A stretch of DNA of 17,603 bases from a virus. Its lineage: Duplodnaviria > Heunggongvirae > Uroviricota > Caudoviricetes. A program made the position numbers and the translations under genes. Positions 1 through 16,672 of this stretch are shown one piece after another (position 1 is the first letter of the stretch; each line of letters begins with the position of its first letter). Below the pieces are notes generated by a model. That model searched no databases, was not told the origin of the DNA, and saw nothing but the letters and a program-made list of their open reading frames with translations. Where the stretch lies: the IMG/VR virus record IMGVR_UViG_2534682108_000015, positions 1 through 17,603 of that record; one strand, given 5' to 3'.

Positions 1-1236
1 ATGGCGCTGTCTGATGCGTGGTTGCGTTCAGTCGTTGGAAAGGAACGTGATAAGGTTTTGGTTAAATCCGATCGTGATGGTCTGTCTGTCAGAGTATCAC
101 CGAAAGGTCGCGTAGTGTTCCAATATCGTTATCAATGGGCAGGGAAAGGTGAGCGCCTTGATATCGGAACTTACCCGGCAACTGGATTAAAAGAGGCCAG
201 AGAAGAAGTTATCCGTCTCCGTGGTGAACTCGAGTCAAACCGCAATCCACGATTAGTCAAGCAGGCTGAAAAACGAAAAGCTACTGAAGCCATGACGGTA
301 GAGTCTGTGATCCGTGCCTGGTATGAAGCATATTGTGTAAAAAATAAAAAAGGTTCTGAACAGATACTCCGCTCGTTTGAGCTGCACCTGTTCTCTAAAA
401 TCGGGAATATCCCTCACGATGCAGCTACATTGCATGATTGGTTAGAAGTCCTGGAGCCTCTTAGCACCAAGACTCCAGCAATAGTAGACCGATTGCTAAT
501 TAACGCAAAGCAGGCTCATGTCTGGGCGTATAAGAGAAAGCTCATTGAAACTCGCCCACTGTCGGATATCACGGGTAAAGATATGGATATCCGTAAAGGT
601 CAGAAAAAACGGTTTCTGACACATGATGAAATTAACATCCTTTATGCTGCGATCGATGGTTCTCGAATGGTTCCTAAATACCGAGCCTTCATTAAACTAT
701 TGCTGCATTTTGGTTGCCGTAGTTCAGAGCTAATTACTGCTAGGGGGGATGATTTTGATTTCATAAATAAGGTATGGACTGTACCACCAGAACGACATAA
801 GACTGGGGACATAACAGGCGAACCGCTAAAGCGGCCCATTATTGAACCGGTTGAAGAGCTTATAAAATACGTTATCTCTATGAACAACGGTTCCGATATG
901 CTTTTTACTAAGGAAGGAAGCAGGGAGCCAGTTGGTCGGACATCATTGCAGTCGCTGCCTTACAATTTAATGCAGTTCGCATGGCGACGTTTGGGGTATC
1001 AATTTCCTCATTGGTCTCTTCATGATTTGAGACGAACAGCACGAACAAACTTTTCTGATCTTACTGCTCCTCATATTGCTGAAATAATGCTTGGTCATAA
1101 ACTGCCAGGTGTATGGCAAGTTTATGATAAGAGCGATTATCTAGAAGAACAGCGTAAAGCTTACTGGGCATGGTGGGAGAGGGTTGAATCGATCGTTACT
1201 TGTACTGACTTAATCTCCAACGGACAGTTTGCGTAG
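1..1236 (+). CDS. int: Tyrosine site-specific integrase, P4-type (N-terminal arm-binding domain plus catalytic domain)
   Basis: 411-aa ORF with an N-terminus typical of P4-family integrases (MALSDAWLRS...). C-terminal catalytic motifs are present: HDLRRTARTNF (His-x-x-Arg) and a downstream Tyr (VYDKSDY). Stop TAG at 1234-1236. Confidence 0.9.
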   Translation: MALSDAWLRSVVGKERDKVLVKSDRDGLSVRVSPKGRVVFQYRYQWAGKGERLDIGTYPATGLKEAREEVIRLRGELESNRNPRLVKQAEKRKATEAMTVESVIRAWYEAYCVKNKKGSEQILRSFELHLFSKIGNIPHDAATLHDWLEVLEPLSTKTPAIVDRLLINAKQAHVWAYKRKLIETRPLSDITGKDMDIRKGQKKRFLTHDEINILYAAIDGSRMVPKYRAFIKLLLHFGCRSSELITARGDDFDFINKVWTVPPERHKTGDITGEPLKRPIIEPVEELIKYVISMNNGSDMLFTKEGSREPVGRTSLQSLPYNLMQFAWRRLGYQFPHWSLHDLRRTARTNFSDLTAPHIAEIMLGHKLPGVWQVYDKSDYLEEQRKAYWAWWERVESIVTCTDLISNGQFA

Positions 1237-1394
1237 CCAGAGCGTAATCATATCTGCCAGTCCGCTGCGGATACCTTGTGTACTGGGTTTTTAGCCAGAC
1301 TACGTTAACCGGTAGCTTCAGTATTTGGGGTGTCGGCAGGAGTTTGATGGTTTATTGGGTTACTGTGGGACTAAGGATGTAGGGATGCCAATCG

Positions 1395-2528
1395 ATGAAT
1401 TATGAAAAATATCATAGCACAAACAGAAGCAAGGGTTTGCGAACCTTCTGCTACTTAATTTATTATGTGCAGGTGATTTTTAATGTGATGAAGTGTTTTA
1501 TGACTCGCGGAAACTTTGATTTTATAAACTCTAACGTGGTTTTCTCAGAAGCCGATAAGTCATTGTGGATTGATCTCATTAACACCGATTGTATTTGGTA
1601 TGATATGATAATTAATCCTCCTGATGATATAAGAACAAATAAGATAATAAAGAACTATCTCAGAATTATGGAAAAATATACGAGGGAAAGCTGTGAAAAG
1701 AGATTTATTTATTTCTTAGGTTCAAGAAAAAAAGTGAGGTTTTCAACCAAGAAACAGCCTAGGTATAACCCATTCACAAAAAATATAGTATTCACTCTGT
1801 TGATTGGCAAAGAAGAGCGAAAGCTTCGGATAAAATATTCCTTTTGCACGTTTACGCAGAATGGGGTAGTGAAGGTAACTCCAAATGTTAGAGTAACTGA
1901 GAAGTTTCTCTACATTGAATATGAAAATGGCAATTTATGTGTGATGTCAGTTCATGATTTCGTAAACGGACATTATATTGATTTAGGAATTCATACAGAA
2001 GTGCATTACGTAGGATATACACGTCATCCGCATCGGCGCCCTGTTGATTTTATTCACCGTGGCTTATCAAAGATGCTGTATAGCGTTTCAAATGACGATA
2101 ATGATTTTTTTGTTTGTTTTAGTATATTTAATCCAAGGATTATATCTCTGAATAATAAATGTAATGTGGTCTTTAATATTTCAAATTCTCTACTGGATGA
2201 AATTGATGTTGATAATGAGGGGAGAATTATTGAAAACTGCTTAATACGTTACTTTGATCCTAAGCTTCAAGATGATGACAAGGAAAGTAAAAGGTCAGAT
2301 TTAAATAAAATGTTTATGGACCTGGTGGAAAATAAAAAAATTAAAAAAATATACGTTAATTTTCAATATGAAAGGAATAATGAGTATTTCTGCTTTTACT
2401 CTAAAGTTGTTCCGCCGAAATTTCATCATTTCTTTGTGTTGGATTTTTCTGATGGCAAGATAAATATTGATAGAGACCAGGATATGATGACTCAGATGGC
2501 ATTGTGCATGGGGTATTATAATTATTAA
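1395..2528 (+). CDS. Hypothetical protein, AT-rich orphan immediately downstream of the integrase (candidate accessory or defence gene). The start is uncertain; in-frame ATGs at 1488 and 1500 are alternatives.
   Basis: Long uninterrupted ORF (377 codons from 1395) that is markedly AT-rich compared with the flanking phage genes, and rich in N/K/I/F/Y. A plausible sigma70 promoter (TTGCGA 1437-1442, TATTAT 1461-1466) and AGGTGA (1471-1476) precede the ATG at 1488. No recognisable domain by inspection. Confidence 0.55.
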   Translation: MNYEKYHSTNRSKGLRTFCYLIYYVQVIFNVMKCFMTRGNFDFINSNVVFSEADKSLWIDLINTDCIWYDMIINPPDDIRTNKIIKNYLRIMEKYTRESCEKRFIYFLGSRKKVRFSTKKQPRYNPFTKNIVFTLLIGKEERKLRIKYSFCTFTQNGVVKVTPNVRVTEKFLYIEYENGNLCVMSVHDFVNGHYIDLGIHTEVHYVGYTRHPHRRPVDFIHRGLSKMLYSVSNDDNDFFVCFSIFNPRIISLNNKCNVVFNISNSLLDEIDVDNEGRIIENCLIRYFDPKLQDDDKESKRSDLNKMFMDLVENKKIKKIYVNFQYERNNEYFCFYSKVVPPKFHHFFVLDFSDGKINIDRDQDMMTQMALCMGYYNY

Positions 2529-2737
2529 TATTTCGCCTGATGCCAACTCAAAATCTTTTTTGTCGCATCCATTGTGGATTAATATTCAGAGGTAAGGGGT
2601 ATCTGCGGAATTTATATTTTGCAGGATGAGTATACAATACATGATATAACATCTGTTTTTGGCACAGAGCATATAGTCAGATTATGTTTAGTTCTGTGCC
2701 ATAGATGGATATTATCTCACCTCTTGGCTAACTCTCA

Positions 2738-2932
2738 TTACTCAATAACTCCAGTAAATCTGTATATTTTGCGTGATGCCCATTTATTTGGGCAGGATTT
2801 AATATCAGGATCTGGAAAATCTGGCCTGTATTTCTGGCCTGTCCTCCTGTTTACGCTGTTCCAGCGAAGCACCGTCGATATTGAAACGCCACAGAATTCG
2901 GCGACTTGTTTTGTTGTCATTAAGTTGCTCAT
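2738..2932 (-). CDS. AlpA-family HTH DNA-binding protein, excisionase-like (putative Xis)
   Basis: 64-aa ORF with the HTH segment TTKQVAEFCGVSISTVLRW followed by an FPDP...KW-type wing. Strong SD (GGAGG) 8-9 nt upstream of the ATG at 2930-2932. Preferred over the overlapping plus-strand ORF 2619-2984. Confidence 0.5.
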   Translation of the reverse strand: MSNLMTTKQVAEFCGVSISTVLRWNSVNRRTGQKYRPDFPDPDIKSCPNKWASRKIYRFTGVIE

Positions 2933-2966
2933 TGCTACCCCTCCAGCGGTTGTTCAGTTGAAAGAC

Positions 2967-3503
2967 TCATGCGCATGTGCGTAACTCCGATAACTCGTTA
3001 AAGCGTTCCATAAACATCCCGTAGGCATGGCCTGGCGACAGTGGAATAACTTTGAACATCTCTGTGGCAGAGATGCCTTCCAGTACTGGCCAGAAAGAGC
3101 CATCATCAAGCCCGAGATCGCGGCGTTCGGTTGCCAGCATGATGAGATCGGCATATTTCACGGGTGTACTCATAACCGGGGGTAACCCGTATTTCTCACG
3201 GATTACGGCGTCTATTTTTTCTTCCATCCGTTTATAGTCAGGAAGAAGGCGTTTCAGTGGTGCGGGAATGTCCTGGCAATACGCTTCTGTTGCATCATGC
3301 ATTAACGCTTCAAAAGCAAATTCCTGCGGCACCAGCTGGCTGCAAAGCACCGCATGCTGGGCGACACTGTAGAAGTGTGAAAGATGTCCTGCAAAGCGAC
3401 AGATATTTGAAAGGGAAACCGCGATATCGTTAATCACGATGTCGTCTTTATTTATCTTGTCATAATAAAAATGCTTCCCGGAAAAAGTTTTAATAAATGA
3501 CAT
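2967..3503 (-). CDS. yfdR: HD-domain phosphohydrolase (5'-deoxynucleotidase-like), YfdR-like, 178 aa
   Basis: HD-domain signature (H...H...LMHDATEAY...D). The internal ATG at 3501-3503 has a GGAG SD 7 nt upstream and gives 178 aa; the ORF-track 199-aa version lacks an RBS. Symbol assigned from the 120/274/178-aa size and order match to the CPS-53 yfdP-yfdQ-yfdR block as recalled, not from an alignment. Confidence 0.65.
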   Translation of the reverse strand: MSFIKTFSGKHFYYDKINKDDIVINDIAVSLSNICRFAGHLSHFYSVAQHAVLCSQLVPQEFAFEALMHDATEAYCQDIPAPLKRLLPDYKRMEEKIDAVIREKYGLPPVMSTPVKYADLIMLATERRDLGLDDGSFWPVLEGISATEMFKVIPLSPGHAYGMFMERFNELSELRTCA

Positions 3504-3631
3504 TTCGTTCTCCACTTTATATGCGCTGCACCGCGCTGAATTCGGGTAAAAGTAAGCCCTCACCATCCGGCGATTATTGAGTTAATTACGTTTCCATAAA
3601 TGCCCCCGCAGGGGCATTTGCAGTAATGAAA

Positions 3632-4456
3632 TCAGGCGGTGAAAGTACCAATAAAGGTTTCTACTTTGCTGTCTTTGAATTTCTCAACAAGCAGATCACG
3701 AAATTCGTTAGCCATTTCCTCCTGCACTGCTTCCAGCTGAATAATGCGCAGAACCAGTACAGGACGATCGCCAGTGATAATGCTGAGGCGTAATTTAAAC
3801 GGACGTTCTTTCAGGCCTTCAAACGGAACGCATTTAAATTCAAATGCCACTGGCATAATGTCTTTGGTTTTCGCTTCGACAGACTCCATCAGGGAGCGTT
3901 TGCCGCTGAAGTCATTGTCTTCAAAATCAGCGGTCTGGTTTGCTTCAATCGTGATTTTACGGACTGCCGCAGCTGCTTTTGTTGCCTGAATAGCGTCACC
4001 ATTAGCATCAAAGCCCACAAGGTAGTCGGCCCAGTCTTCAATCCATTCTGCCAGTGACTTCTGGGAGTTACGCTCGCCATTAACAGACAACAGAGCAGAG
4101 AACGGTGCTGTCTTTTTCAGTTTGAGAGTGGCGGTGTTATCTGCGTGACCTGGTTCATCAATAGTACCCAGATTAAGCACACTGACGGCACGCATATTAT
4201 CAGCATCGATAAAGCAGCGGGTGCCCTCATCTGCAAGATCTTTAGAATAACGGGTAAAGTCATCGATGCTGGTAGTGGAAAGCGCACCACGGAAACGGAA
4301 GCGATTTAAATTAAATTTTTCCAGATCATGAATGCGGAAGTTCTCAGGCAATGCCACAGCATCGGCACCAATCTTACTGATAATTTCATTAACACTCTGA
4401 GCAGAAATAAGGGCATGGATTTGATTAATTGCGGTTGCGTCTAAGTTCTGAGACAT
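3632..4456 (-). CDS. yfdQ: YfdQ-like phage early protein (DUF2303-type), 274 aa
   Basis: 274-aa ORF with a GAGGA SD 8 nt upstream of the ATG at 4454-4456. Length and position between the YfdP-like and YfdR-like genes match the CPS-53 early block as recalled; not verified by alignment. Confidence 0.6.
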
Positions 4457-4521
4457 AATAAGTCCTCACTATATAAAGATATTCAGTGATGAGATAAATA
4501 ATCAGTTTATTAAAAACGATA

Positions 4522-4884
4522 TTAACGACCAGCTGCGCGGAGTTTTCCGTCAGGTTCACCGGCAAGAGTCAGTAATTGTCCCTGGTCTTCCTGCAGAATA
4601 GTCAGGCGACCACCGCGATTGACATACATCGGCGTTTCGGTGGTGTCTTCTTCGGAAATTTTCCCGCGGTTAGTTGGGCGAACATATGAGAGTTTGTGTT
4701 TGATTTTCACACGGTTCTCATCAAACGGTTCGATTTCCAGATTGAGTGAGACCTTCCCTTTGGTTTTCGTGTTCATCACACCGGAAGCGACTTCACTTAG
4801 AACTGCGCCGATTTTGGTTTCAAATACGCCGCCGTCCAGCTCCCCGATAAATGCCTGCACATCAGTACTGCGGTCACTAGCCAT
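4522..4884 (-). CDS. yfdP: YfdP-like small phage early protein, 120 aa
   Basis: The internal ATG at 4882-4884 is preceded by GAGGAG 7 nt upstream and gives 120 aa. The upstream 77 codons of the ORF-track version (to 5115) are R/C/T/P-rich, overlap a large inverted repeat, and look non-coding. Confidence 0.55.
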   Translation of the reverse strand: MASDRSTDVQAFIGELDGGVFETKIGAVLSEVASGVMNTKTKGKVSLNLEIEPFDENRVKIKHKLSYVRPTNRGKISEEDTTETPMYVNRGGRLTILQEDQGQLLTLAGEPDGKLRAAGR

Positions 4885-4932
4885 TTTGCTGCTCCTCATC
4901 ATATCGACCCTGCAAGGTCGGTTAGTTTCTCC

Positions 4933-5021
4933 ACAAAACAGAGAAGAACACCTGCGGTGGCAGCCGCCCGGATGGATTGGGTTATGAGCCCGTCGTCCGG
5001 TGATGCTCTTCTCTGTTTTGT
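4933..5021. repeat. Perfect 15-bp inverted repeat (ACAAAACAGAGAAGA, 4933-4947, and its reverse complement TCTTCTCTGTTTTGT, 5007-5021) enclosing a 59-nt GC-rich loop; candidate RNA stem-loop in the leader of the leftward early operon
   Basis: Verified base by base. A boxA-like CGCTCTTTTTA lies immediately 5' on the minus strand (complement of 5021-5031). Confidence 0.5.
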
Positions 5022-5534
5022 AAAAAGAGCGGTACCAGCCGGAAGCAAGTGTACAAACTGGTACCTCCAAAGCAGTGGCTGTTGTGGTGGGGTTGTCACT
5101 CAGGCGTATGGTCAACCTGACAATCCGGTGTCCTCAACGGGGAAAGAGTAACCCCGCCATACTTACCGCCGCGCCATTTCGCGGATTACCACAACGCTGA
5201 GAGCACTTAGCCAGTTACGGCACCACACTTTGTCGCGGCTCCATAAATGCCCTCATCGTTGCACCCTGGTCTCTTCCCAGGCGTCAAACCGAATCGCCAC
5301 GCTGGTTAGGCGTCTTATCAGCATCATCATTGACTTGCACATTCCGGCTACCTGGTTTGTTTGCCCGAGCAAGGAGTGGATTGTCCCCTTTAACGTCCCC
5401 AGACCGCTAACGACGCATGTGCCATACGCCGTGTTACAACCAAATTTTGTTAGTACCTTGTTTGTTGGTCTGGAAAGAAAGATAAAATGAAGTTGCGCAT
5501 TATGCAAGTGTTTTATTGCGAGATGTGCAATTTA

Positions 5535-5555
5535 ATAGGTAATGAAAAGCCACCT
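5535..5555 (-). terminator. Intrinsic terminator downstream of the cI-like gene
   Basis: On the minus strand, GCCACC-CGAA-GGTGGC (6-bp GC stem, tetraloop) followed by TTTTC, about 30 nt after the cI stop. Confidence 0.55.
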
Positions 5556-5585
5556 TCGGGTGGCTAATTGATGAGGAGGTAAGGG

Positions 5586-6278
5586 TTAATTGTGTCGCTT
5601 AAGGGTTTGTGACTGGCTGATTAAGACCTTTCCAAAGACCATAAACCGGTGTTCATTTTCGCTGGTAATTCCCCATTCACGGTAAATCTGGTTATCAGAA
5701 ATCACCAGTAGTTTGTCAGGTATCATTTGCAGTCGTTTGACATAAATTTTATCATCAAAACCAAATACATAGATACCATCTCCATCAAACTGATTGATAC
5801 TGACATCAACGAAGATGAGATCTCCTGGCTCAATGGTTGGACACATACTGTCCCCACGAACGTTGATAACTTTAATGTGATTGGCTGGTCGTCCGCCAAA
5901 CATCGATACAGCATTATCAGTTCTGTATTCAATGGCATGAATCACATCAATGACATCACCGCCCTGGATAAGGCCATTTCCCGCACTGGCACTGACATCC
6001 AGCATTTCAATACGGAATACATCCTTCACCTGCGCAACATCCTCACTAATACTGTTTTTACATACAGTATTACTTTTGACGTCTGAGGTAAAGAGATCAG
6101 CAATATCAACACCTAAGCTCCTGGCAATATTACTCAGGGCTTGTTCAGTGAATTGTTTCTGCTTACCTGTTTCCAGGCGCGAGATATTCGCCGCATCCAC
6201 TCCTATTGCTTCAGCTAGATCGGCGATTTTCATGTTCTTCGCCTGGCGAAGTTGTCTGACTCGATTTCCTATGTTCAT
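5586..6278 (-). CDS. cI: CI-type prophage repressor (N-terminal XRE HTH plus C-terminal S24 LexA-like autopeptidase domain)
   Basis: 230 aa. HTH: MKIADLAEAIGVDAANISRLETGKQ. Peptidase motifs GDSM (Ser) and KR (Lys) are in the C-terminal half. Divergent from the cro-like gene. Confidence 0.9.
   Translation of the reverse strand: MNIGNRVRQLRQAKNMKIADLAEAIGVDAANISRLETGKQKQFTEQALSNIARSLGVDIADLFTSDVKSNTVCKNSISEDVAQVKDVFRIEMLDVSASAGNGLIQGGDVIDVIHAIEYRTDNAVSMFGGRPANHIKVINVRGDSMCPTIEPGDLIFVDVSINQFDGDGIYVFGFDDKIYVKRLQMIPDKLLVISDNQIYREWGITSENEHRFMVFGKVLISQSQTLKRHN
6050..6069. promoter_or_regulatory. Consensus-grade LexA (SOS) box TACTGT-N8-ACAGTA inside the cI coding sequence
   Basis: Plus strand TACTGTTTTTACATACAGTA; all 12 outer positions match the E. 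coli SOS-box consensus. It lies in the linker-coding region (codons about 70-76) of the repressor gene. Confidence 0.5.
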
Positions 6279-6375
6279 GCGTTTATTACATTTCTTTATT
6301 GCGCGTTAATCAAATCAACTTGCGCAAAATATTTGCGTGAAATAATATGATCATCACGCAATATGTGGAGGTTAT
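6279..6375. promoter_or_regulatory. cI-cro intergenic control region: divergent PRM/PR-like promoters with repeated TTGCGC-type operator half-sites
   Basis: TTGCGCG (6299), the palindrome TTGCGCAA (6320-6327) and the inverted pair TTGCGTGA (6334-6341) / TCACGCAA (6353-6360). Candidate PR: -35 TTGCGC (6320-6325), 17-nt spacer, -10 TAATAT (6343-6348). cro SD GTGGAGG at 6365-6371. Confidence 0.6.
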
Positions 6376-6636
6376 ATGCAATCACCATTACGGAATGTGC
6401 GTAAGGCGCACGGATTTACTTTGCAGCATGTTGCTGCTGGCGTTCAGGTCAATCCAGCGACGCTGAGTCGTATTGAAAGACTGGAACAAATTCCATCTAT
6501 CGATCTTGCAGAACGTCTGGCCAATTTTTTTAAGGGTGAAATCAGCGAAATGCAGATTCTTTATCCGGCACGTTTTCAATCTAGCCAAAACCAGAATGGG
6601 TTTAAACCACAGGAACAGGAGGTAAGCCGTGGGTAA
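6376..6636 (+). CDS. cro: Cro-like HTH regulator
   Basis: 86 aa with an XRE-type HTH (FTLQHVAAGVQVNPATLSRIER), divergent from cI, good SD. Its stop overlaps the next gene. Confidence 0.75.
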   Translation: MQSPLRNVRKAHGFTLQHVAAGVQVNPATLSRIERLEQIPSIDLAERLANFFKGEISEMQILYPARFQSSQNQNGFKPQEQEVSRG

Positions 6637-7180
6637 TCATCACTGGAAAGTGGAAAAACAGCCTGAGTGGTACGTGAAAGCTGTCAGAAAAACCATCGCG
6701 GCGTTGCCAGGGGGTTACGCTGAAGCTGCTGAGTGGCTGGATGTTACAGAGAACGCTTTATTCAACCGCCTTCGTGCAGATGGCGATCAGATTTTCCCGC
6801 TGGGATGGGCAATGATTTTACAGCGTGCTGCTGGCACTCACTACATTGCGGATGCTGTCGCACAGTCTGCTGGTGGGGTGTTTGTATCGCTTCCTGAAAT
6901 TGAGGAAGTAGAGAACGCAGATATAAACCAGCGCCTGCTGGAAGTCATCGAACAGATCGGGAGTTACTCAAAGCAGATTCGTTCGGCAATCGAAGATGGG
7001 GTAGTGGAGCCACACGAGCAGACAGCAATTAATGATGAATTGTATCTGTCAATTTCGAAGCTCCAGGAGCATGCGGCACTGGTCTACAAAATTTTCTGCG
7101 CTCCAGAAAAGAGTGACGCCCGCGAGTGTGCAGCTCCGGGCGTCGTGGCGTTTTGTGTCTGTGGAGAAACTAACGCATGA
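6629..7180 (+). CDS. CII-like phage regulatory protein (CP76-type)
   Basis: 183 aa, GTG start at 6629 preceded by AGGAGG (about 6616-6621). Positioned immediately after cro. Family assignment by resemblance to phage CII/CP76-type regulators; not verified. Confidence 0.65.
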   Translation: MGNHHWKVEKQPEWYVKAVRKTIAALPGGYAEAAEWLDVTENALFNRLRADGDQIFPLGWAMILQRAAGTHYIADAVAQSAGGVFVSLPEIEEVENADINQRLLEVIEQIGSYSKQIRSAIEDGVVEPHEQTAINDELYLSISKLQEHAALVYKIFCAPEKSDARECAAPGVVAFCVCGETNA

Positions 7181-7505
7181 ACAGTTTAACGGCAAATAAC
7201 CGTTTGTCGCAACAGCTGGTGGTCAGTGTCGCTGCACACCTGTTGTTACGGCATGAATGCAGATTACCAAATCACCTGGCTGTAAGTAACCACAGAGAAC
7301 TTTACCTGACTGTGGGGGGCGAGTTGTGCAGGAACTTAACCGCTGGTTTCGTGACGGAAGAGGACTTTATGTTCATGTTATTCGTTGGGAGCCAGAAACA
7401 CAGCGCGTTATCTATCTTCGCAAAGACTACCCGCATGAGTGCTTTAGTCCTTTATGGAAATTCAGGCGTGATTTTGTTGAGTGTGAAGGACCACCAGCAC
7501 ATTGA
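7177..7505 (+). CDS. Possible small gene of about 108 aa, readable only if a frameshift occurs at a G6 tract (7314-7319); as sequenced, the frame beginning at ATG 7177 instead runs on to 8328
   Basis: ATG 7177 overlaps the CII-like stop (ATGA). After the G6 run, a different frame encodes a protein-like 59-aa segment (VQELNRWFRDGRGLYVHVIRWEPETQRVIYLRKDYPHECFSPLWKFRRDFVECEGPPAH) ending at TGA 7503-7505. The interval is not a multiple of 3 as sequenced. Confidence 0.3.
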
Positions 7506-7590
7506 TTCTGCCATTCCGGGACGTTACACTGTTCAGGCACCTTATAAAGCGGGTGCCGGGCGTGGAAACCCGGAATTCACCAAAGCGCAC

Positions 7591-7613
7591 AACCGCGCTC
7601 TTGCGGTTTTTTT
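7591..7613 (+). terminator. Intrinsic terminator-like hairpin with T-tract (tR-like) between the small ORF and rha
   Basis: AACCGC-GCTCTT-GCGGTT stem-loop followed by TTTTT (7609-7613). The loop contains the boxA-like CGCTCTT. Confidence 0.4.
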
Positions 7614-7782
7614 GTGTCATGAGCAGCATTACGCCCAAATTATGGTGGGGCGTGCAGGGCCAACTTCGGTTGGGCCGGGTTCTTTGGTGACCGGTATTTC
7701 CACCCCTGTACGTCTCACCACCAATAAGGTCGTGGAAAGCCTTGGTGGTGAGTTATTAAAAATCACCAAAGAGGCTGCCATC

Positions 7783-8328
7783 ATGGCTACGATCCCAACC
7801 CTCACTCAACCTGAAATTGCCATCGTTGATGGTCAGGCTGTTACTTCATCCCTGGCTGTTGCCAACTTCTTCTCCAAACGTCATGACGATGTACTGAAAA
7901 AGATCCGCACGCTTGAATGTTCCGCATCATTCACTGCCCGCAATTTTTCGGTGAGTGATTACACCGATTGCACAGGCCGCAAACTACCTTGCTATCAAAT
8001 AACCCGCGACGGCTTTGCGTTTCTTGCTATGGGTTTCACGGGTAAACGTGCTGCCCAGTTCAAAGAGGCATACATCAATGCCTTTAACCAGATGGAGAAA
8101 CAGCTTTCAAAGCCCGCTGTACCGAGCGACGTTGCACATAATGCCAGCGTTCTCTGTTCCTACATTTCATCAATTCATCAGGTCTGGCTGCAGCAGCTTT
8201 ATCCTATGTTGGCAAAAGCCGAATCTCCGCTGGCTGTTAGCTTATATGACTATATTAATGATGCTTCGGCGCTGGCCTGCCTCATAAATTTGTCGCTGAA
8301 CCCTTCAGAGGTAAGGGGGCGCAAATGA
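7783..8328 (+). CDS. Rha-family phage regulatory protein
   Basis: 181 aa from ATG 7783 with SD AAAGAGG 8 nt upstream. N-terminal Rha-type motif (SLAVANFFSKRHDDVLKKIR). The 383-aa ORF-track version is treated as an artefactual N-terminal extension. Confidence 0.8.
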   Translation: MATIPTLTQPEIAIVDGQAVTSSLAVANFFSKRHDDVLKKIRTLECSASFTARNFSVSDYTDCTGRKLPCYQITRDGFAFLAMGFTGKRAAQFKEAYINAFNQMEKQLSKPAVPSDVAHNASVLCSYISSIHQVWLQQLYPMLAKAESPLAVSLYDYINDASALACLINLSLNPSEVRGRK

Positions 8329-8549
8329 TCCGGAATATTTTCAAACGTTTTACCAATCAGACTTTCCGTTGTCCTCGTCCGGGTCAGTGGTACACCACGC
8401 CTGCAGGGCATGTTCTACGTGTTAGCCTGGTTGACCGTGAATGTCAGAAGGTGATTTGTGAACCGCTGGGCCGTAATTACCGCGTCAGTATGCCGCTTAT
8501 AGCCTTTCGCTCCGGAAAAAACATGAAGCATCTCGGAGGTGCAGCATGA
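8325..8549 (+). CDS. Small hypothetical protein (74 aa), translationally coupled on both sides
   Basis: ATGA overlaps with the rha stop (8325-8328) and with the replication-gene start (8546-8549). Contains three Cys and a basic N-terminus. Confidence 0.5.
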   Translation: MIRNIFKRFTNQTFRCPRPGQWYTTPAGHVLRVSLVDRECQKVICEPLGRNYRVSMPLIAFRSGKNMKHLGGAA

Positions 8550-9364
8550 GTATGGAGCTGATGGTTAAAGCGATGAAAATTCGAGTGGGTAATCCATTGC
8601 GAAAACTGGTTCTGATCAAGCTGGCTGATAATGCCAGCGATCAGGGTGAGTGCTGGCCCAGCTACCAGCATATTGCTGACCAGTGCGAGATTAGCAAACG
8701 TTCTGTGATGAATCATATTGCGGCCCTTTGTGAGTCCGGGCTGGTAAAAAAAGTCACCCGGAAAGGTGAAAAAGGTAACTCAAGTAATATCTATCTCCTT
8801 CATCTTGATGGTGCAGGAGATTCACTAGGGGGTAGTGCAAATAATTCACTATCTGGTGCAGCAAATTCACTAGGTAGTGCAGGAGTTGCACCAGGGGGTA
8901 GTGCAGGAGATTCACCCAGAACCAGTCACTCTTTTGAACCAGTCAAAGAATCAGTCAATGAACCAATAGCTGTTGGTGCATCAGTTGATGAGTCCGTGCG
9001 AGTTCGTTCAAACCGACCGGAATACTCTCCGGAGTTTGAGCAGGCATGGCTGGCCTATCCCAAACGTGCTGGTGGCAATTCAAAATCTGCAGCCTTCAAA
9101 GCTTGGAAAGCCCGTTTGAATGAGGGGGTAAAACCCGAAACCATGCTGGAAGGTGTGAAACGCTACGCGGGCTGGGTATCTGCGATGGGTAACAGCGGCA
9201 CACAATTTGTGAAACAGGCTGTCACGTTCTTTGGTCCGGATCGTCATTTCGAAGAATCCTGGGAAGTTCCTGCGGTATCTGCAGCCAGACGCGAGGACCC
9301 GTACTTCAAAGCCAGTTACGACAACGTGGACTACAGCCAGATCCCGGCAGGATTCAGGGGGTGA
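8546..9364 (+). CDS. Replication initiator / replisome organiser (N-terminal HTH, Gly/Ser-rich linker, DnaT-like C-terminal domain)
   Basis: 272 aa with GGAGG SD. Iteron-like DNA repeats are embedded in the linker-coding region, as in ori-lambda within gene O. The C-terminal region (YPKRAGGNSKSAAFKAWKARL...) is typical of phage DnaT-like replication proteins. Confidence 0.8.
   Translation: MSMELMVKAMKIRVGNPLRKLVLIKLADNASDQGECWPSYQHIADQCEISKRSVMNHIAALCESGLVKKVTRKGEKGNSSNIYLLHLDGAGDSLGGSANNSLSGAANSLGSAGVAPGGSAGDSPRTSHSFEPVKESVNEPIAVGASVDESVRVRSNRPEYSPEFEQAWLAYPKRAGGNSKSAAFKAWKARLNEGVKPETMLEGVKRYAGWVSAMGNSGTQFVKQAVTFFGPDRHFEESWEVPAVSAARREDPYFKASYDNVDYSQIPAGFRG
8811..8917. repeat. Putative origin iterons: 20-24-bp-spaced repeats with internal dyad symmetry (CACTA...TAGTG) inside the replication gene
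   Basis: GTGCA recurs at 8812, 8836, 8856, 8877 and 8901; TTCACTA at 8821, 8845 and 8866. CAGTCA triplet repeats (8923, 8941, 8953) follow. Confidence 0.6.
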
Positions 9365-9366
9365 TT

Positions 9367-9855
9367 ATGAGTCTTTTGAATGAAGTTCAGAAATTCATTG
9401 AAGCCCATCCGGGGTGTACTTCCGGAGACATTGCGGATGCTTTTGCAGATTACTCACGGCAGCGCGTTCTGCAGTCAGCAAGCAAGTTACGTCAGAGTGG
9501 GAGTGTGGCTCACCGTTGTGAAGGAGATACACGCAGACATTTCCCGCGCCTGACTGAGAGAGCGCAGGGGCCGGAACCACAACCAGTTCGTGAAACCAGA
9601 TCTGTGCGCAATTTCTATGTCGGCACTAACGATCCACGGGTGATTTTGTGCCTGACCCGCCAGGCTGAAGAACTGGAGTCCAGGGGCTTATACCGTCGTG
9701 CTGCAACGGTGTGGATGGCGGCATTCCGAGAAAGCCACTCCCAGCCAGAACGAAACAATTTTCTGGCTCGTCGTGAGCAGTGCTTACGGAAAAGCAGCAA
9801 GCGTGCTGCATCGGGTGAAGAGTGGTATCTGTCAGGGAATTACGTGGGGGCTTAA
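9367..9855 (+). CDS. PerC/Pch-like transcriptional regulator with an N-terminal winged-helix-like extension
   Basis: C-terminal segment AEELESRGLYRRAATVWMAAF...RREQCL resembles the PerC family. Start taken at ATG 9367 (GGGGG SD); the ORF track begins at GTG 9361. Confidence 0.5.
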   Translation: MSLLNEVQKFIEAHPGCTSGDIADAFADYSRQRVLQSASKLRQSGSVAHRCEGDTRRHFPRLTERAQGPEPQPVRETRSVRNFYVGTNDPRVILCLTRQAEELESRGLYRRAATVWMAAFRESHSQPERNNFLARREQCLRKSSKRAASGEEWYLSGNYVGA

Positions 9856-10181
9856 TGACGACGTTAACTCAATGCCAGCAGCAGGTGCTGGATATGCTGA
9901 TTTCTTATCAGAAAGAACGTGGTTTCCCGCCAACCAATCAGGAGGTGGCAACCATGCTGGGATACCGTTCGGTGAATGCAGCGGTGGAGCATCTTCGCGC
10001 ACTGGAGAAAAAAGGCGTCATCACGATAAAGCGTGGCGTGGCCCGGGGTATCACGCTTCATACCACAGTGAAGGATGACGACAGTGAGGCAGCCGGGATT
10101 ATCCGCGCACTGCTTGCCGGTGAGGAAAACGCCAGACTGCGTGCAGTCCACTGGTTACATAAGAGGGGCCTGAAAGTATGA
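9855..10181 (+). CDS. LexA N-terminal DNA-binding-domain protein lacking the S24 peptidase domain
   Basis: 108 aa from ATG 9855 (TAATG overlap with the upstream stop). MTTLTQCQQQVLDMLISYQKERGFPPTNQEVATMLGYRSVNAAVEHLRALEKKGVI aligns by eye with the LexA winged-HTH; there is no Ser/Lys peptidase region. Confidence 0.75.
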   Translation: MTTLTQCQQQVLDMLISYQKERGFPPTNQEVATMLGYRSVNAAVEHLRALEKKGVITIKRGVARGITLHTTVKDDDSEAAGIIRALLAGEENARLRAVHWLHKRGLKV

Positions 10182-10567
10182 AGCTGATCCTGCCTTTTCC
10201 GCCCAGCGTGAACACGTACTGGCGACACCCCAACAAAGGGGCGTTTGCTGGTAAGAGCCTGATAAGCGCGGCGGGGCGAAAATTCCAGAGCGCGGCGTGT
10301 GCAGCAATAGTTGAGCAGTTACGTCGTCTGCCAAAACCAACGTCGGCACCTGCTTCAGTGGAGATCGTGTTGTTTCCTCCGGATAACCGGATCCGCGATC
10401 TGGACAACTATAACAAGGCGCTGTTTGACGCCCTGACCCACGCGGGGGTGTGGGAAGACGACAGTCAGGTGAAAAGAATGCTGGTGGAGTGGGGACCGGT
10501 TATCCCGGAAGGGAAGGTCGAGATCACTATCAGTAAGTACGAGAAAACGGCGGGTGCAGCCGCCTGA
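10178..10567 (+). CDS. rusA: Holliday-junction resolvase RusA
   Basis: 129 aa with the RusA hallmark (LPFPPSVNTYWRH ... RDLDNYNKALFDALT ... DDSQV). ATGA coupling to the upstream gene and SD AAGAGGGG. Confidence 0.9.
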   Translation: MKLILPFPPSVNTYWRHPNKGAFAGKSLISAAGRKFQSAACAAIVEQLRRLPKPTSAPASVEIVLFPPDNRIRDLDNYNKALFDALTHAGVWEDDSQVKRMLVEWGPVIPEGKVEITISKYEKTAGAAA

Positions 10568-10586
10568 TTAAGAGGAGAAACGAAGT

Positions 10587-11429
10587 ATGAATAATCTGAT
10601 GGTCATTGATGGTATTGAAGTTCGTCGTGATGCTTATGGGCGTTACAGCCTGAACGATCTGCATCGCGCAGCAGTAGCATCTGGTGCAAATGCCAGAACC
10701 AAGGAGCCGGGAAAGTTTCTTTCCAGCCAACAGATTACTGAGCTGGTTCAGGAATTGATCGATACCCAAAATCTGGGTGTCGGTTCATTCAATGAAACTA
10801 CCCAAAATTTGGGTAGTAAACCTGTCAGTAAAATAGAAGGGCGGAATGGCGGAACATATGTCTGTAAGGACCTGGTGTATGCCTATGCAATGTGGATCAG
10901 CCCGTCATTCCATCTGAAGGTGATCCGCACTTTCGACATGGTAACCAGCGCACCGGAAAAATTATCCTGGCAGGCTGCTGACAAGATGCAGGCTGGCGTG
11001 ATTCTGCTGGACTTTATGCGCCGGGAGTTAAATCTGTCTAACTCATCAGTGCTTGGTGCCTGTCAGAAACTCCAGGAGGCTGTTGGCTTACCGAATCTGG
11101 CACCGCGCTATGCCATTGATGCTCCTGCTGACGCGCCTGATGGCTCAAGCCGCCCCACGCTGTCACTGAGTGCATTGCTGAAGCAGTATGGTATCCGCCT
11201 GACAGCTAATCAGGCATATCACCAGATGGTGAAGCTGGGGATCGTCGAGCAGCGCGAACGATACAGCCGTACCGCGATTAACAACATCAAAAAATTCTGG
11301 TCACTGACAGCGAAAGGCTGCATGTTCGGCAAGAACATCACCAGTCCCGCAAATCCGCGCGAGACGCAGCCGCATTTCTTCGAATCCCGATTCCCTGAGC
11401 TGTTAAAGCTGCTCGATACCGTTCATTGA
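10587..11429 (+). CDS. KilA-N domain protein (antirepressor-like)
   Basis: 280 aa. N-terminal KilA-N-type region (DGIEVRRDAYGRYSLNDLHRAA ... YVCKDLVYAYAMWISPSFHLKVI). SD AGAGGAG. Confidence 0.8.
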   Translation: MNNLMVIDGIEVRRDAYGRYSLNDLHRAAVASGANARTKEPGKFLSSQQITELVQELIDTQNLGVGSFNETTQNLGSKPVSKIEGRNGGTYVCKDLVYAYAMWISPSFHLKVIRTFDMVTSAPEKLSWQAADKMQAGVILLDFMRRELNLSNSSVLGACQKLQEAVGLPNLAPRYAIDAPADAPDGSSRPTLSLSALLKQYGIRLTANQAYHQMVKLGIVEQRERYSRTAINNIKKFWSLTAKGCMFGKNITSPANPRETQPHFFESRFPELLKLLDTVH

Positions 11430-11430
11430 G

Positions 11431-12426
11431 GTGACCGTGAGAGCACTACTGACCCCTGAAATTGCCCCGCGTATGGGGATCGTATTGTTCAGGCCAGGTT
11501 CAGAGCTGATGCCCCTGTTTATGCAGGGGCGTGTCCTGCTGGAGCCTGAGCCGGAACGTTATTCATCTTTCGCCAGTGGTGCTGTTCCGGCGGCATCACA
11601 ACCGCTGGCGGATGATCCTGCCGTTCGGGCCGTGTTCCGCAATGAGGCAGTGATCCGTCGTGCTGGTGGCGTGGAATGTCTTGAAAGCTGGTTACTTCGT
11701 GAAAAAGGCTGCCAGTGGCCTCATTCCGACTGGCACAGCGAGAACATGACCACAATGCGTCACGCGCCGGGCGCAATCCGTCTGTGCTGGCACTGCGATA
11801 ACCAGCTGCGCGATCAGTTCACGGAACGGCTGGAATCAATGGCAACGGATAACTGTGCCCGCTGGGTGTTGTCTGTCGTGCGTCGGGATCTCGGTTTTGA
11901 TGACAGTCACGTTGTGACAATGCCGGAACTGTGCTGGTGGCTGGTTCGTAATGATCTGGCGGATGCCTTACCTGAAAGTGCAGCCCGTAAGGCACTGAGA
12001 TTACCGAAGCCTGTTGTGCCGTCTGTCACCCGGGAGAGTGACCTTGTTCCTTCGGTTCCGGCCACCAGCATCATCCAGAATAAAGCGAAAAAGGTGCTGG
12101 CGCTGAAAGTGGATCCGGAGTCGCCGGAGTCTTTTATGTTACGCCCAAAACGTCGCCGCTGGGTTAATGAAAAGTACACGTGCTGGGTTAAGACACAGCC
12201 GTGTGCATGTTGTGGAAAGCCCGCTGATGATCCCCACCACCTGATAGGTCACGGTCAGGGTGGAATGGGAACAAAAGCGCATGACCTTTTTGTGTTGCCT
12301 TTGTGCAGAAAGCATCACGACGAGCTGCATGCGGATACCGTGGCATTTGAAGAGATGTATGGCTCCCAGCTGGAGCTGATATTTCGTTTTATCGATCGTG
12401 CGTTGGCAATTGGTGTGCTGGCCTGA
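11431..12426 (+). CDS. DUF968-family protein with a C-terminal HNH-like Cys/His motif
   Basis: 331 aa. C-terminus CACCGKPADDPHHLIGHGQGG...CRKHHDELH. GTG start as in the ORF track; alternative in-frame starts exist. Confidence 0.7.
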   Translation: MTVRALLTPEIAPRMGIVLFRPGSELMPLFMQGRVLLEPEPERYSSFASGAVPAASQPLADDPAVRAVFRNEAVIRRAGGVECLESWLLREKGCQWPHSDWHSENMTTMRHAPGAIRLCWHCDNQLRDQFTERLESMATDNCARWVLSVVRRDLGFDDSHVVTMPELCWWLVRNDLADALPESAARKALRLPKPVVPSVTRESDLVPSVPATSIIQNKAKKVLALKVDPESPESFMLRPKRRRWVNEKYTCWVKTQPCACCGKPADDPHHLIGHGQGGMGTKAHDLFVLPLCRKHHDELHADTVAFEEMYGSQLELIFRFIDRALAIGVLA

Positions 12427-12443
12427 TTTTGTGGAGAAGGTTG

Positions 12444-12806
12444 ATGCGTGATATTCAGATGGTTCTTGAGCGTTGGGGGGCATGGGCGGCGAGTGATAGT
12501 TCTGGGGTAGACTATTCGCCTATAGCTGCTGGGTTTAAAGGGCTTCTTCCCTATACAAGCAAAACACGTCAGGCTTGTTCAGATAGTGATGCATTAATTA
12601 TTGAAGGTTGTCTTGCTCGTCTAAAGCAAAAAAGACCTGAAGAACACTCGCTTCTTGTTGCCCATTACCTATACGGTATCTCTAAAAGAAAGCTCGCTAA
12701 AGCTCGCAAAAAGGATGAGAAAATAATACGCATTGAGATACAGATGGCTGAGGGATTTATAGAAGGTTGTCTAGCTATTCTAAATGTTAGCTTAGATATG
12801 GATTAA
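12444..12806 (+). CDS. Q: Late-gene antiterminator Q (QuuD / phage-21-82 type)
   Basis: 120 aa from ATG 12444 (SD GGAGAAGG). The N-terminus MRDIQMVLERWGAWAA...AAGFKGLLP is characteristic of the small Q family. Confidence 0.8.
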   Translation: MRDIQMVLERWGAWAASDSSGVDYSPIAAGFKGLLPYTSKTRQACSDSDALIIEGCLARLKQKRPEEHSLLVAHYLYGISKRKLAKARKKDEKIIRIEIQMAEGFIEGCLAILNVSLDMD

Positions 12807-12849
12807 TATCTTGGTTTGGGTAAGCAGGTGTGCTTGCACCTGCTTAATA

Positions 12850-13302
12850 TTATATGTGGGGTAATATCCAGTTTATTTTCCGCCAGGTACTTGCAAATGA
12901 AACTATTGATACGATCAGGGTCGAGAAACCATATAAGGTTAGGGCGAAATCAAGTCTTACAGAGGTAATGGTGATTTTTTCATTTATAAACATTGCTATC
13001 AGCGGGAAAATACATGCTAATATTAAGGTGACTCCCGTAGATAACAGGTTATGAATAATTTTAGGTAAAATCTTGTTTTGTTTTAAAGCAAAAATAATTC
13101 CATCAGTGCTTGAACTTGCAGAACTGAAGATGGAAATAGCGGCCAATACAAAACCAAACAAAATGCCTGCCACCGTAGATAACACTCCGGCTGTACTTAA
13201 GATATCAGAGTGAGCCATAGGCGCTAGGTATTTCCCAAGCACCCAAGCTAACAGCCCACTGATAACTATGTTAATTAAAACTTTAATAAGCATAATCATC
13301 AT
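12850..13302 (-). CDS. Small four-TM membrane protein (RexB-like architecture); second gene of the AT-rich accessory cassette
   Basis: 150 aa with four clear hydrophobic helices (about residues 3-23, 36-60, 88-108, 120-140). AT-rich. Starts 14 nt after the upstream gene's stop, with AAGGA before the start cluster. Confidence 0.6.
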   Translation of the reverse strand: MMIMLIKVLINIVISGLLAWVLGKYLAPMAHSDILSTAGVLSTVAGILFGFVLAAISIFSSASSSTDGIIFALKQNKILPKIIHNLLSTGVTLILACIFPLIAMFINEKITITSVRLDFALTLYGFSTLIVSIVSFASTWRKINWILPHI

Positions 13303-13316
13303 CCTTAAAAATAAGA

Positions 13317-14249
13317 TCAGATTTCATATTGCTTTAAATACTGACCATGTTCAATTTTAGCACTTATCAAGGCAGTACGCACATCTGTTTCTTTTGCGTA
13401 GCCATCTTTTGTGTTAATGTTTTTTTCACTGATCAGAACTTGATTGAGAAGACTCCTTGAATGAGTATTTTTAGGTTCAGTGACATTAGCTTTACGTAAT
13501 AAGTGAGGAACTTTTTCTATTAATTCCTTTATTCCACTTTTTACTTCATCACTGAGATAACCACGGATTAATTTACGTTGCGATGCTCTACCTCTAAGTG
13601 ATAGTTTTAAATGCGAACCGCCCATCCCAGCCATCATTTCAATCATACTTTTGGAAAATGAATTCGAAAGGTCATAATCCGTTGCGCTAAAATCACGTGG
13701 AGCGGCGAGTGTAATTTCACAGCTACGTAAAGTGCTTCCTGTTTCAAGTAGTTCTTTTACACTTTCTTTTTTCCAAATTGCCTCAAACGCTACAGGTTTG
13801 TTTTCTTCAGAAAAATTGAATAAAAGAAATGCTAAATCGGAAGCTTTAGGTCATAAATGATTTTGAGATAAAACAAGAATGTCTTTCTTATAGTAGTAAA
13901 TAAAATAAGTGCGTTCGACTATATATTTTTTATCATCTAACGGAATATTGTGCTCATCCCAATTTTCATCACCAATATAAGGTAAGTGGAAACCATCACG
14001 AGAGCATGATAGATAACCAAAATAGAACTCCGCCTGTGCGTCTTTTTCTAAGAATACAATCTTTAATTTTTTCTTATCAAACTCAGCGGTATAAGAATTT
14101 TGCGAAGGTGTAACAATGGTTGTATACATTTTGTCAAATGCAAGTTGTGCATTTGATGTAGTTGACTTCGTTCCTGAGGAGCTTTGGAAGAAACCGATAC
14201 GCATTTTTTTTTGTTTAGTTAGTGGCGCGGAAGTGGCTGTAGTAGTCAT
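13317..14249 (-). pseudogene. Cytoplasmic protein of about 311 codons split by one in-frame TGA (13851-13853); first gene of the accessory cassette; RexA-like by position and size only
   Basis: ORFs 13851-14249 and 13317-13646 are in the same frame. The 68 codons between the TGA and the next ATG contain no stop and no ATG/GTG/TTG, verified codon by codon. AT-rich. Confidence 0.55.
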
Positions 14250-14548
14250 TAAAATTACCCTTTATTATCCTTTTGAATCAATGGGTTGTGATTTATTAAT
14301 GATCCTGGGTTCGTTGCATATGCATAATCTATCAAAAAAAACTTACGCGGTCCGCATTTTCTCGTTTACTGTGTTAAGAGTGGTTACTTCGCCACACAGC
14401 TTAAACCCGCCGTCGAGCGGTTTTTTTGTACCTGTAAACCTGGTGCAGTACAGTAAACACGCTGGTGGTCGTGAATACTGACTTTTTATCTTGCTGGCTT
14501 TTTAGACAAGAGTTATTGGTATGTCATGTTAACCAGAAGGGAAAAGAC

Positions 14549-14752
14549 ATGCTAAAACAGCAAGATATGACAGAAATCGCCGCCGCAGTCCTTCACTTCT
14601 TACCTGCTGACAAGTGGGTAACGCCACGCATGATGACGAGAACTACCGGAGTAAGCGAAGCCCGGTGCCAGTTAATACTGACTCAGTTAGTTCTGGCGGG
14701 TCTGGCGAAGGATAACGGCGGGTACGGGAATAAATTCAGACGCTGCCAGTAA
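14549..14752 (+). CDS. Small winged-helix DNA-binding protein (67 aa), divergent from the accessory cassette and upstream of the methyltransferase fragment
   Basis: ATG 14549 with SD AAGGGA 6 nt upstream. HTH-like segment TPRMMTRTTGVSEARCQLILTQLVLAGL. Confidence 0.5.
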   Translation: MLKQQDMTEIAAAVLHFLPADKWVTPRMMTRTTGVSEARCQLILTQLVLAGLAKDNGGYGNKFRRCQ

Positions 14753-14902
14753 TGGCGGTTTCCTGCTGTGAAAATGGGCGGCTGGTGGGTGTTGGTAGCA
14801 CCTGCCAGCCATTCGCTCATGCTTACTGGTCACAAGCGAACCACGGCCCACTGCTTTAGCGCAAAAGCAGAGTGAGCCTACCAGAGTTACGCTTACTGAT
14901 CC

Positions 14903-15310: not shown

Positions 15311-15318
15311 TGTTAATA

Positions 15319-16087: not shown

Positions 16088-16088
16088 T

Positions 16089-16163
<75 letters not shown>

Positions 16164-16665: not shown

Positions 16666-16672
16666 TATGGGC

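Follow-up and report, generated by a model that had tools for sequence, protein, structure and literature searches.

What is an operator for the host SOS repressor LexA doing inside the coding sequence of a phage repressor gene? The question is raised by the cI gene of a virus of the class Caudoviricetes (IMG/VR record IMGVR_UViG_2534682108_000015, positions 1 to 17,603), the whole stretch of 17,603 nucleotides (nt) being referred to here as the window. According to the RefSeq annotation of an identical prophage, it corresponds to a lambdoid prophage inserted beside yjjG in Escherichia coli. Its repressor gene carries a palindromic LexA (SOS) box (Table 1) in the region that encodes the linker between the two domains of the protein, and this box is very probably a genuine high-affinity operator, at which the host LexA is predicted to bind. 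The function that is favoured for it, with moderate confidence, is the control of an internal promoter read in the sense direction of cI, from which an isoform of the repressor reduced to its C-terminal domain would be made.

The gene that harbors the box encodes a protein of 230 amino acids (aa) in which Pfam recognizes a Cro/CI-type helix-turn-helix (HTH) domain (HTH_3/HTH_26/HTH_31, residues 3-64) followed by a Peptidase_S24 domain (residues 104-218, E 6e-19), which is the domain layout of the self-cleaving repressors of the LexA/CI type. The cleavage-type site Ala99-Gly100 (SASA/G, the slash marking the site) and the catalytic-type dyad Ser144 (GDSM) and Lys181 (VKRL) are present and invariant in the repressor alignment, and the protein is annotated as cI or CI in SfII, mEp460 and Stx2a phages. 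The box occupies nt 210-229 of the gene, that is, codons 70-77 (N-T-V-C-K-N-S-I), 23 codons upstream of the cleavage-type site. On the coding strand it reads TACTGTATGTAAAAACAGTA, which agrees with the full consensus TACTGTATATATATACAGTA at 17 of 20 positions and differs by a single base from the umuDC box of E. coli K-12; it has both the CTGT-N8-ACAG core and the AT-rich spacer of the TACTG(TA)5CAGTA type. The initial annotation, made from the letters alone, had reported a match to all 12 outer positions of the SOS box, a chance expectation of the order of 1e-3 and a location between the HTH and the peptidase domain, and each of these statements is borne out. There are no mismatches to TACTGT-N8-ACAGTA, and no other such site exists in the 17.6-kb window; the domain limits given above place the box in the linker; and the estimate of chance is right, because an exact box is expected 0.0014 times per window from base composition and appeared in none of 200 dinucleotide shuffles of the window.

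Table 1. Features of the cI locus, with the LexA-like gene of the early-right operon, in the coordinates of the window
Feature	Position	Strand	Basis
Full-length cI-type repressor, HTH + S24 peptidase, 230 aa	5586..6278	-	Open reading frame (ORF) + Pfam
LexA (SOS) box, palindromic, TACTGTTTTTACATACAGTA on the + strand	6050..6069	.	Exact match at 12/12 outer positions
-35-like hexamer TTTACC of the proposed internal promoter, codons Phe63-Thr64	6087..6092	-	17 nt upstream of TACTGT
-10-like hexamer TACTGT, upstream half of the LexA box (T1, A2, T6 present)	6064..6069	-	umuD-like architecture
Shine-Dalgarno-like GAGGA, 10 nt upstream of the internal GTG	6040..6044	-	Anti-Shine-Dalgarno duplex, -6.3 kcal/mol
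Proposed nested in-frame ORF, GTG codon 84 (6029-6027) to the cI stop, 147 aa	5586..6029	-	Shine-Dalgarno sequence and start; gene callers
Terminator-like hairpin, immediately past the cI stop codon	5548..5565	-	Sequence; annotated rho-independent terminator at the equivalent place in SfII
LexA DNA-binding-domain protein, 108 aa, without S24 domain, early-right operon	9855..10181	+	Pfam PF01726

Conservation of the box was followed in 164 distinct homologous gene sequences from phages, bacterial genomes and viral contigs, collected in part with divergent queries; relatives from Kluyvera, Buttiauxella, Trabulsiella, Mixta and Rosenbergiella were included. A LexA-type CTG-N10-CAG box stands at the identical position of the gene in 159 of them, across the Enterobacterales and down to 54% protein identity, with examples from E. 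coli, Shigella, Salmonella (ST64B), Citrobacter, Klebsiella, Pantoea, Serratia and Proteus. With 93-99% DNA identity, the same repressor is found in mEp460, SfII, Stx2a_1447, Stx2a_WGPS2 and phiSTEC1575; the identity is 76% for ST64B and 69-70% for Klebsiella phages and phage Eeyore. Of 5426 complete E. coli genomes, 1040 carry a member of the family. Five genes are exceptions: one Dryocola gene lacks the box and another, also from Dryocola, has a degenerate version of it (CGCTGTGCAAAAGCACAGCG), while the remaining three are a relative of 39% identity that has no Ala-Gly site either, a relative from Acinetobacter and one that is only 24% identical. Among the homologues the consensus of the box is TACTGTATATAA(A/T)AACAGT(A/G), and nowhere in the gene is variation greater than in the surrounding linker, which contains insertions and deletions.

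It could be argued that the box has no function as DNA, and that it merely reflects a conserved peptide (T-V-x-x-x-S), a hairpin in the mRNA, a boundary of recombination between modules, or chance. The peptide T-V...S is indeed conserved, a hairpin of 6 bp could form from the palindrome, and mosaic lambdoid phages possess conserved islands at the junctions of their modules. What speaks against all this is the choice of codons. In 27 distinct sequences, the codon entropy (H) was compared among the 60 alignment columns that hold a conserved residue with four- or six-fold degeneracy, and the two lowest values belong to Thr71 (ACT in 25 of 25, H = 0) and Ser76 (AGT in 25 of 26, H = 0.24), precisely the codons that supply both LexA half-sites; Val72 ranks sixth, and a typical column has H = 1.3-2.3. 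The synonymous positions of the half-sites are thus invariant, whereas ordinary conserved codons vary freely. The spacer residues do change (Cys/Tyr/His/Phe; Lys/Ile/Asn/Glu/Leu; Asn/His/Ser/Asp/Tyr), yet their codons remain AT-rich, in keeping with the LexA consensus. The conserved bases are exactly those of CTGT-N8-ACAG, and in several homologues (SfII, Citrobacter braakii, Klebsiella spallanzanii and others) the sequence is the exact SOS box of K-12 umuDC, TACTGTATATAAAAACAGTA; moreover, the aligned box sequences contain no compensatory changes of the kind that an RNA hairpin could tolerate. On these grounds, and given the low chance expectation, the explanations at the level of the protein, the hairpin or chance were rejected, and an absence of any function at the DNA level is considered highly improbable. 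Conservation of the site despite synonymous freedom, which the initial annotation had named as a way of checking its proposal, is in this manner found in the homologues, and it indicates that the box is selected as DNA rather than as a peptide.

What the operator might control is suggested by the sequence that follows it on the coding strand. The GAGGA motif downstream of the box forms the best predicted duplex with the anti-Shine-Dalgarno (anti-SD) sequence among all the in-frame internal starts of the gene, and the GTG after it opens a reading frame that runs in phase to the cI stop codon. All 159 box-bearing genes have, in the stretch from the box to the cleavage site, a GTG or ATG in frame that is preceded by an SD sequence (dG -5.0 or better), whereas none of the four box-less relatives has one, nor does the one relative with a degenerate box. 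This start is codon 84 in the clade of E. coli, Shigella and Citrobacter, and in most other lineages it is the residue that precedes [FY]R, either Val (GTG) or Met, GTG accounting for only about 19% of the Val codons elsewhere in these repressor genes. The arrangement is also specific in its position: among 31 lineages below 85% DNA identity, it is present in 31 of 31 in the codon windows 75-103 and in 0-2 of 31 in most other windows, the only sizeable off-target window being that of the conserved Met of the GDSM motif (up to 11 of 31). When the codons were shuffled synonymously with the protein kept fixed, the observed SD-start was matched in 0.7-23% of trials per lineage, which for 30 representatives of box-bearing lineages gives a Fisher combined P of about 1e-12, an optimistic value. 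On sequence evidence, then, an internal ribosome-binding site and an in-frame start appear to be under selection, and the orientation of the operator is taken as sense because they follow the box on the coding strand.

Independent gene predictions in databases have also chosen the internal start. A 147-aa protein at NCBI (P0002) begins at the internal GTG, on fragments situated at contig ends, and a metagenome gene caller has predicted a 144-aa protein (P0107) alone on three contigs (L198-L200, at 2501-2935 or 841-1275) in which the full ORF of 230 codons is intact. Since P0107 was called despite this intact ORF, automated annotation can evidently split or shorten the genes of this repressor family.

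The SD-start signal also bears on the idea that LexA acts at this site as a roadblock or attenuator. According to this explanation, LexA bound about 215 nt into the transcription unit would hinder the polymerase coming from PRM, the repressor maintenance promoter, or from a cII-dependent promoter, and the cleavage of LexA would free CI synthesis. An operator of the umuDC type is very strong and lies here inside a transcribed region, and no internal promoter would be necessary, a convenience given that the internal -35 is weak. Nevertheless, a roadblock leaves unexplained an SD sequence and in-frame start that are conserved together with the box, seem to be selected at the level of codons and are jointly absent from the box-less relatives. 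An increase of CI during the SOS response would, moreover, contradict the logic of a repressor that can be cleaved through RecA, and the LexA operators that we know of overlap promoters. A roadblock is for these reasons held to be unlikely.

An overlap with a promoter is precisely what is predicted in the sense direction. The upstream half of the box offers a -10-like hexamer, TACTGT, which is preceded at 17 nt by TTTACC, and transcription from this weak predicted promoter would start near 6057 (- strand). The layout resembles that of umuD in K-12, where TTGATC is followed after 17 nt by TACTGT inside the box and the ATG stands 19 nt past the box. With a sigma-70 position weight matrix (PWM), the internal promoter of the window scores 8.7 bits and its homologues, in equal register, 6.8-10.0 bits, as compared with 10.3 bits for umuD and 9.5 bits for the probable PRM-type promoter of cI (TTGATT, 17 nt, TGTAAT). 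The register of -35 and -10 is constant in nearly all homologues, and those of Pantoea and Rosenbergiella have, in addition, a consensus TATAAT within the spacer of the box. The initial annotation had left a choice between a roadblock and an internal or an antisense transcript; of these, the internal sense transcript is favoured because of the umuDC-like arrangement of -35 and -10 together with the co-conserved SD sequence and in-frame start downstream, the other two being less probable.

The antisense transcript would run on the + strand through the 5' part of cI and the PRM/OR region into cro, and would yield an SOS-induced antisense RNA, an expression of cro independent of CI, or both. As the box is palindromic, its TACTGT can equally be used as a -10 on the + strand, and good hexamers in this direction do occur in some homologues (TTCACT, 17 nt and TATCAT in Klebsiella, 11.5 bits; 11.1 bits in Pantoea). 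These hexamers, however, shift in position and quality from one lineage to another, and the TTGACG that adjoins the box on the + strand of the window is not conserved; a scan with Rfam found no known RNA at the region of the box, and the SD-start signal on the sense strand would again be left without explanation. An antisense promoter is consequently viewed as doubtful, about as much as the roadblock.

The product predicted from the sense transcript is a protein of 147 aa that begins with VKDVFRIEMLDVSASA/GNG... (the slash marks the cleavage site) and continues with the whole S24 domain, without any HTH. It would thus consist of an arm of 16 residues, the Ala-Gly cleavage site, the Ser144/Lys181 dyad and the dimerization domain. 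When the C-terminal domain was compared with the sequences of the PDB by phmmer, UmuD and UmuD' were the sole matches (E 1e-4), and the identity to K-12 UmuD is 36% over 83 aa. If the isoform exists, it has the layout of the UmuD family, in which an S24 domain is joined to an N-terminal arm bearing the cleavage site and the gene is placed under a LexA operator. There is, on the other hand, no umuC-like polymerase gene in the RefSeq annotation of the prophage region that could provide the partner typical of this family; as such a gene is missing there and a terminator follows cI, the predicted product was not classified as UmuD, which the short protein resembles in design only.

The proposed mechanism is as follows. 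In the undamaged lysogen, LexA would hold the internal promoter shut, and full-length CI would be produced from the upstream PRM-type promoter. This promoter is separated by only 6 nt from the ATG, as in PRM of lambda, so that the cI mRNA is probably leaderless. Depletion of LexA in the course of the SOS response would then let the weak internal sigma-70 promoter fire, giving rise to a short mRNA that brings its own SD sequence (GAGGA) and in-frame GTG84 and that would be translated into a headless CI isoform. The cI transcript and the proposed nested one probably both end at the hairpin past the cI stop codon. Headless subunits could associate with full-length CI into mixed dimers that have one DNA-binding domain rather than two. 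Alternatively, the isoform could cleave CI in trans, an activity of which the C-terminal fragments of LexA and of the lambda repressor are capable in vitro. By either route the occupancy of the phage operators would fall and the RecA-stimulated cleavage of CI would be reinforced, resulting in a feed-forward commitment to lysis. Because the cI mRNA appears to be leaderless, its sole canonical ribosome-binding site is the internal SD sequence, and some of the short form may accordingly arise constitutively as well.

Operators of the umuDC type are among the tightest LexA sites, and derepression should accordingly require a deep or prolonged SOS response. It has also been considered that the isoform could have the opposite sign and, by competing as a decoy for activated RecA, hold induction back. 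This fits less well, since the operator would open only late in the SOS response. That the isoform promotes induction is put forward tentatively, with less assurance than the existence of the internal promoter and of the isoform.

Several points weigh against the internal promoter and its product. The joint loss of the box and the SD-start has been seen in just one independent lineage (Dryocola), and the combined P values are optimistic because the lineages compared are phylogenetically related. The internal -35 is weak (4 of 6 positions) and lies inside conserved Leu-Phe-Thr codons, on account of which its conservation is not independent evidence, and a PWM score of 8.7 or more arises by chance about once per 570 nt. 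As for translation, the spacing of 10 nt between SD and GTG in the E. coli clade is longish, GTG is a weak start codon, and the best SD-start of one Klebsiella subclade is at codon 96, only four codons ahead of the cleavage site. In bulk RNA-seq of ST64B, cI showed no marked rise under peroxide or nitric oxide shock, which is a poor test as it is based on transcripts per million for the whole gene. Finally, the direction of the effect of the isoform, for or against induction, is a matter of pure inference.

A different reader of the box has to be weighed as well, since the prophage encodes a LexA-like protein of its own. This 108-aa protein, which has no S24 protease domain, matches the LexA_DNA_bind domain of Pfam (PF01726) over its full length (1-65/65, E 2.9e-19); its identity to residues 1-68 of E. 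coli LexA is 51%, and it keeps the motif of the recognition helix, RS.NAA.EHL. The gene was found in 61 phage records, including SfV, SfII, SfIV, cdtI, mEp460 and Stx2a/Stx2c phages. The protein is in effect a mimic of LexA that is not cleavable, and it might re-repress SOS boxes, the one in cI among them, during lytic growth. It has been considered that this protein could be the main reader of the boxes in cI and in a methylase gene during lytic growth, binding by host LexA being incidental. A complete LexA DNA-binding domain is encoded by the phage, the gene accompanies the boxed cI in 10 of the 10 E. coli and Shigella phages checked, and a second conserved box is present at the start of the phage methylase gene. 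The boxed cI, however, persists in ST64B, Klebsiella phages and numerous other genera for which no homologue of the LexA-like gene was detected among phage records, and this gene also occurs in phages that have other repressors (SfV, SfIV, cdtI). It is therefore improbable that the phage protein is the main reader. A role as second reader of the cI box, as an associated part that is not required, is possible, and reading by the phage protein and control of an internal promoter are mutually compatible.

The second LexA-type box, TACTGTAAAAATAAACAGTG, is located at 14911-14930 (+ strand), over codons 3-9 (N-T-V-K-I-N-S) of a truncated N6/N4 DNA methyltransferase pseudogene (14903-15310), in the same frame as in cI. 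CTGT-N8-(A/C)CAG is kept at this site in WGPS2, phiP27, Eeyore and Hafnia phage yong2, the flanking codons being different, and the box is conserved in phages down to 77% identity. Altogether, three CTGT-N8-ACAG cores are observed in the window and 0.24 are expected. The third, GGCTGTAAGTAACCACAGAG, at 7280-7295 (+), 100 nt into the Rha/Ash gene, was rejected as a functional LexA site: it is absent from ST64B, where the region is 87% identical, and it is probably due to chance because it is not kept there. A second LexA-like sequence, GGCTGTGG(G/A)(T/C)T(A/T)TTGCAGTA, is also found in loci of Pantoea, Mixta and Rosenbergiella (L017, L018, L020, L021, L023 and L028), at about 3677-4301 and at a distance of 500-1100 nt downstream of the repressor gene.

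How does the arrangement in cI compare with systems already known? The closest likeness is to umuDC of E. coli. The operator is identical (in the SfII-type homologues) or one base off (in the window), the -35 is likewise followed after 17 nt by TACTGT, and 19-33 nt past the box begins an S24 protein whose N-terminal arm is short and whose cleavage site is internal. The differences are that the module is embedded in frame in a repressor gene, that no umuC-like gene is nearby and that the presumed partner is CI. Two other systems make truncated or alternative forms of a regulator from internal starts. In Tn5/IS50, an internal promoter and start yield Inh, an in-frame product without the DNA-binding N-terminus, which poisons the transposase through mixed oligomers, and LexA has been reported to repress the promoter of the Tn5 transposase; Inh, however, is constitutive and lowers transposition, whereas the short form of CI would be induced by SOS and would inactivate the repressor. 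The repressor gene c of the Streptomyces phage phiC31 gives three in-frame isoforms with different N-termini from internal starts, but they are not under LexA control, belong to another protein family and all retain DNA binding.

LexA-controlled antirepressors, such as Tum of phage 186, GfoA/GfhA of the Gifsy phages (PMC3121763) and AntC of N15, are similar in that LexA, in place of RecA-mediated repressor cleavage or alongside it, gates a small protein which inactivates the repressor in the SOS response. They are, nonetheless, separate genes unrelated to the repressor and are usually directed against repressors that are not cleavable, whereas the candidate in cI is the C-terminal domain of the repressor itself, made from a nested promoter and with cleavage site and dyad intact; instead of a separate gene with a LexA box at its promoter, as in the Tum and Gifsy type, it is an element nested in cI. 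Hex of phage 434 is also a second protein encoded in the region of the repressor gene that modulates the SOS induction of the prophage, although it is read in an overlapping, different frame of the PRM mRNA, blocks RecA-mediated cleavage and has no LexA operator (PMC3564112). In GIL01 (gp7/LexA) and CTXphi, an operator for the host LexA is also wired into the lysis-lysogeny circuit, and GIL01 encodes a LexA homologue (PMC6182141, PMC11511902), as the prophage of the window does. In those phages, however, LexA sits at the main early promoters, in place of a CI-type repressor, and not inside the coding sequence of a cleavable CI. None of the systems compared combines a LexA operator, a promoter, a ribosome-binding site and a start codon in a cleavable CI gene. 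No description of a LexA box or of a nested isoform in a cI gene was found in the full-text literature, where the coverage of older and subscription articles is thin, and an in-frame nesting of these elements in such a gene is apparently undescribed.

Some candidates were examined and set aside. YmfK, the e14 repressor of K-12, is not a member of the family, as its sequence is unrelated and has no box. The small RNA STnc1310 is not a transcript from inside cI, for it sits 327-400 nt downstream of the cI stop of ST64B. The svsR small RNA, described as lying within cI of prophage NC-SV, is assigned to the 3' end of cI through weak similarity to C0293 and has no link to LexA (PMC12803456).

The repressor gene and its neighbour, a cro-like gene (6376-6636), are divergent, and next comes a CII(CP76)-like gene (6629-7180). 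Inverted repeats of the form TTGCG(C/T)...(G/A)CGCAA recur between cI and cro (6279-6375), for example TTGCGTGA-N13-TCACGCAA, and TTGCGC/GCAA repeats of a similar kind are found downstream of the cI terminator, at about 5480-5545; these repeats are likely to be the OR and OL operators. Downstream of cII, Rfam reports an IsrK match (67 bits) and a P1-type C4 antisense RNA (83.6 bits), at 7537-7613 and 7638-7725 (+), both above the gathering score and inside an ORF (7177-8328) that is annotated as a Rha-family regulator and has an Ash domain. The region looks like an RNA-controlled antirepressor module of the P1 immI or Gifsy IsrK type, and its counterpart in ST64B is very highly expressed under all conditions in D23580 (PMC7067206, supplement). 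The nin and late-regulatory region holds accessory genes (10587-11429, 11431-12426, 13851-14249 and neighbours) that RefSeq assigns to KilA-N, DUF968/HNH and the antiterminator Q family, as well as three small ORFs on the reverse strand, one of them with DUF6731. The late region has two tRNA genes, at 16011-16084 and 16089-16160 (+), annotated in RefSeq as Arg and Gly, and a match to the small RNA STnc100 (Rfam, 123 bits) at 16466-16672 (+).

Taken as a whole, the features of cI can be read as a complete umuDC-like SOS module that would make a single gene both a repressor and its built-in antirepressor. This larger picture, which includes two read-outs of the SOS response, an origin by fusion and an effect on the induction threshold of Stx2a phages, is offered as a conjecture that is plausible rather than probable. 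Induction would need both the cleavage of CI mediated by activated RecA (RecA*) and the depletion of LexA, and the repressor may derive from an HTH domain that was fused onto a LexA-regulated UmuD-like gene. The gene would also be a case of overlapping codes, as several codons of the linker are apparently set by the operator and the ribosome-binding site and not by the protein. Phages are known to couple their induction to DNA damage by two routes, the RecA-stimulated cleavage of the repressor, as in lambda, and the LexA-controlled expression of separate antirepressors, as in 186, Gifsy and N15; if the proposal is true, an antirepressor inside the repressor gene would represent a third. The family is also found in the Shigella serotype-converting phage SfII and in Salmonella ST64B, and since it is common and includes the repressors of Stx2a_1447 and WGPS2, the module could influence the production of Shiga toxin and the induction of prophages by antibiotics. 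In Stx2a phages, the SOS module in cI would then help to set the threshold at which Shiga toxin is released.

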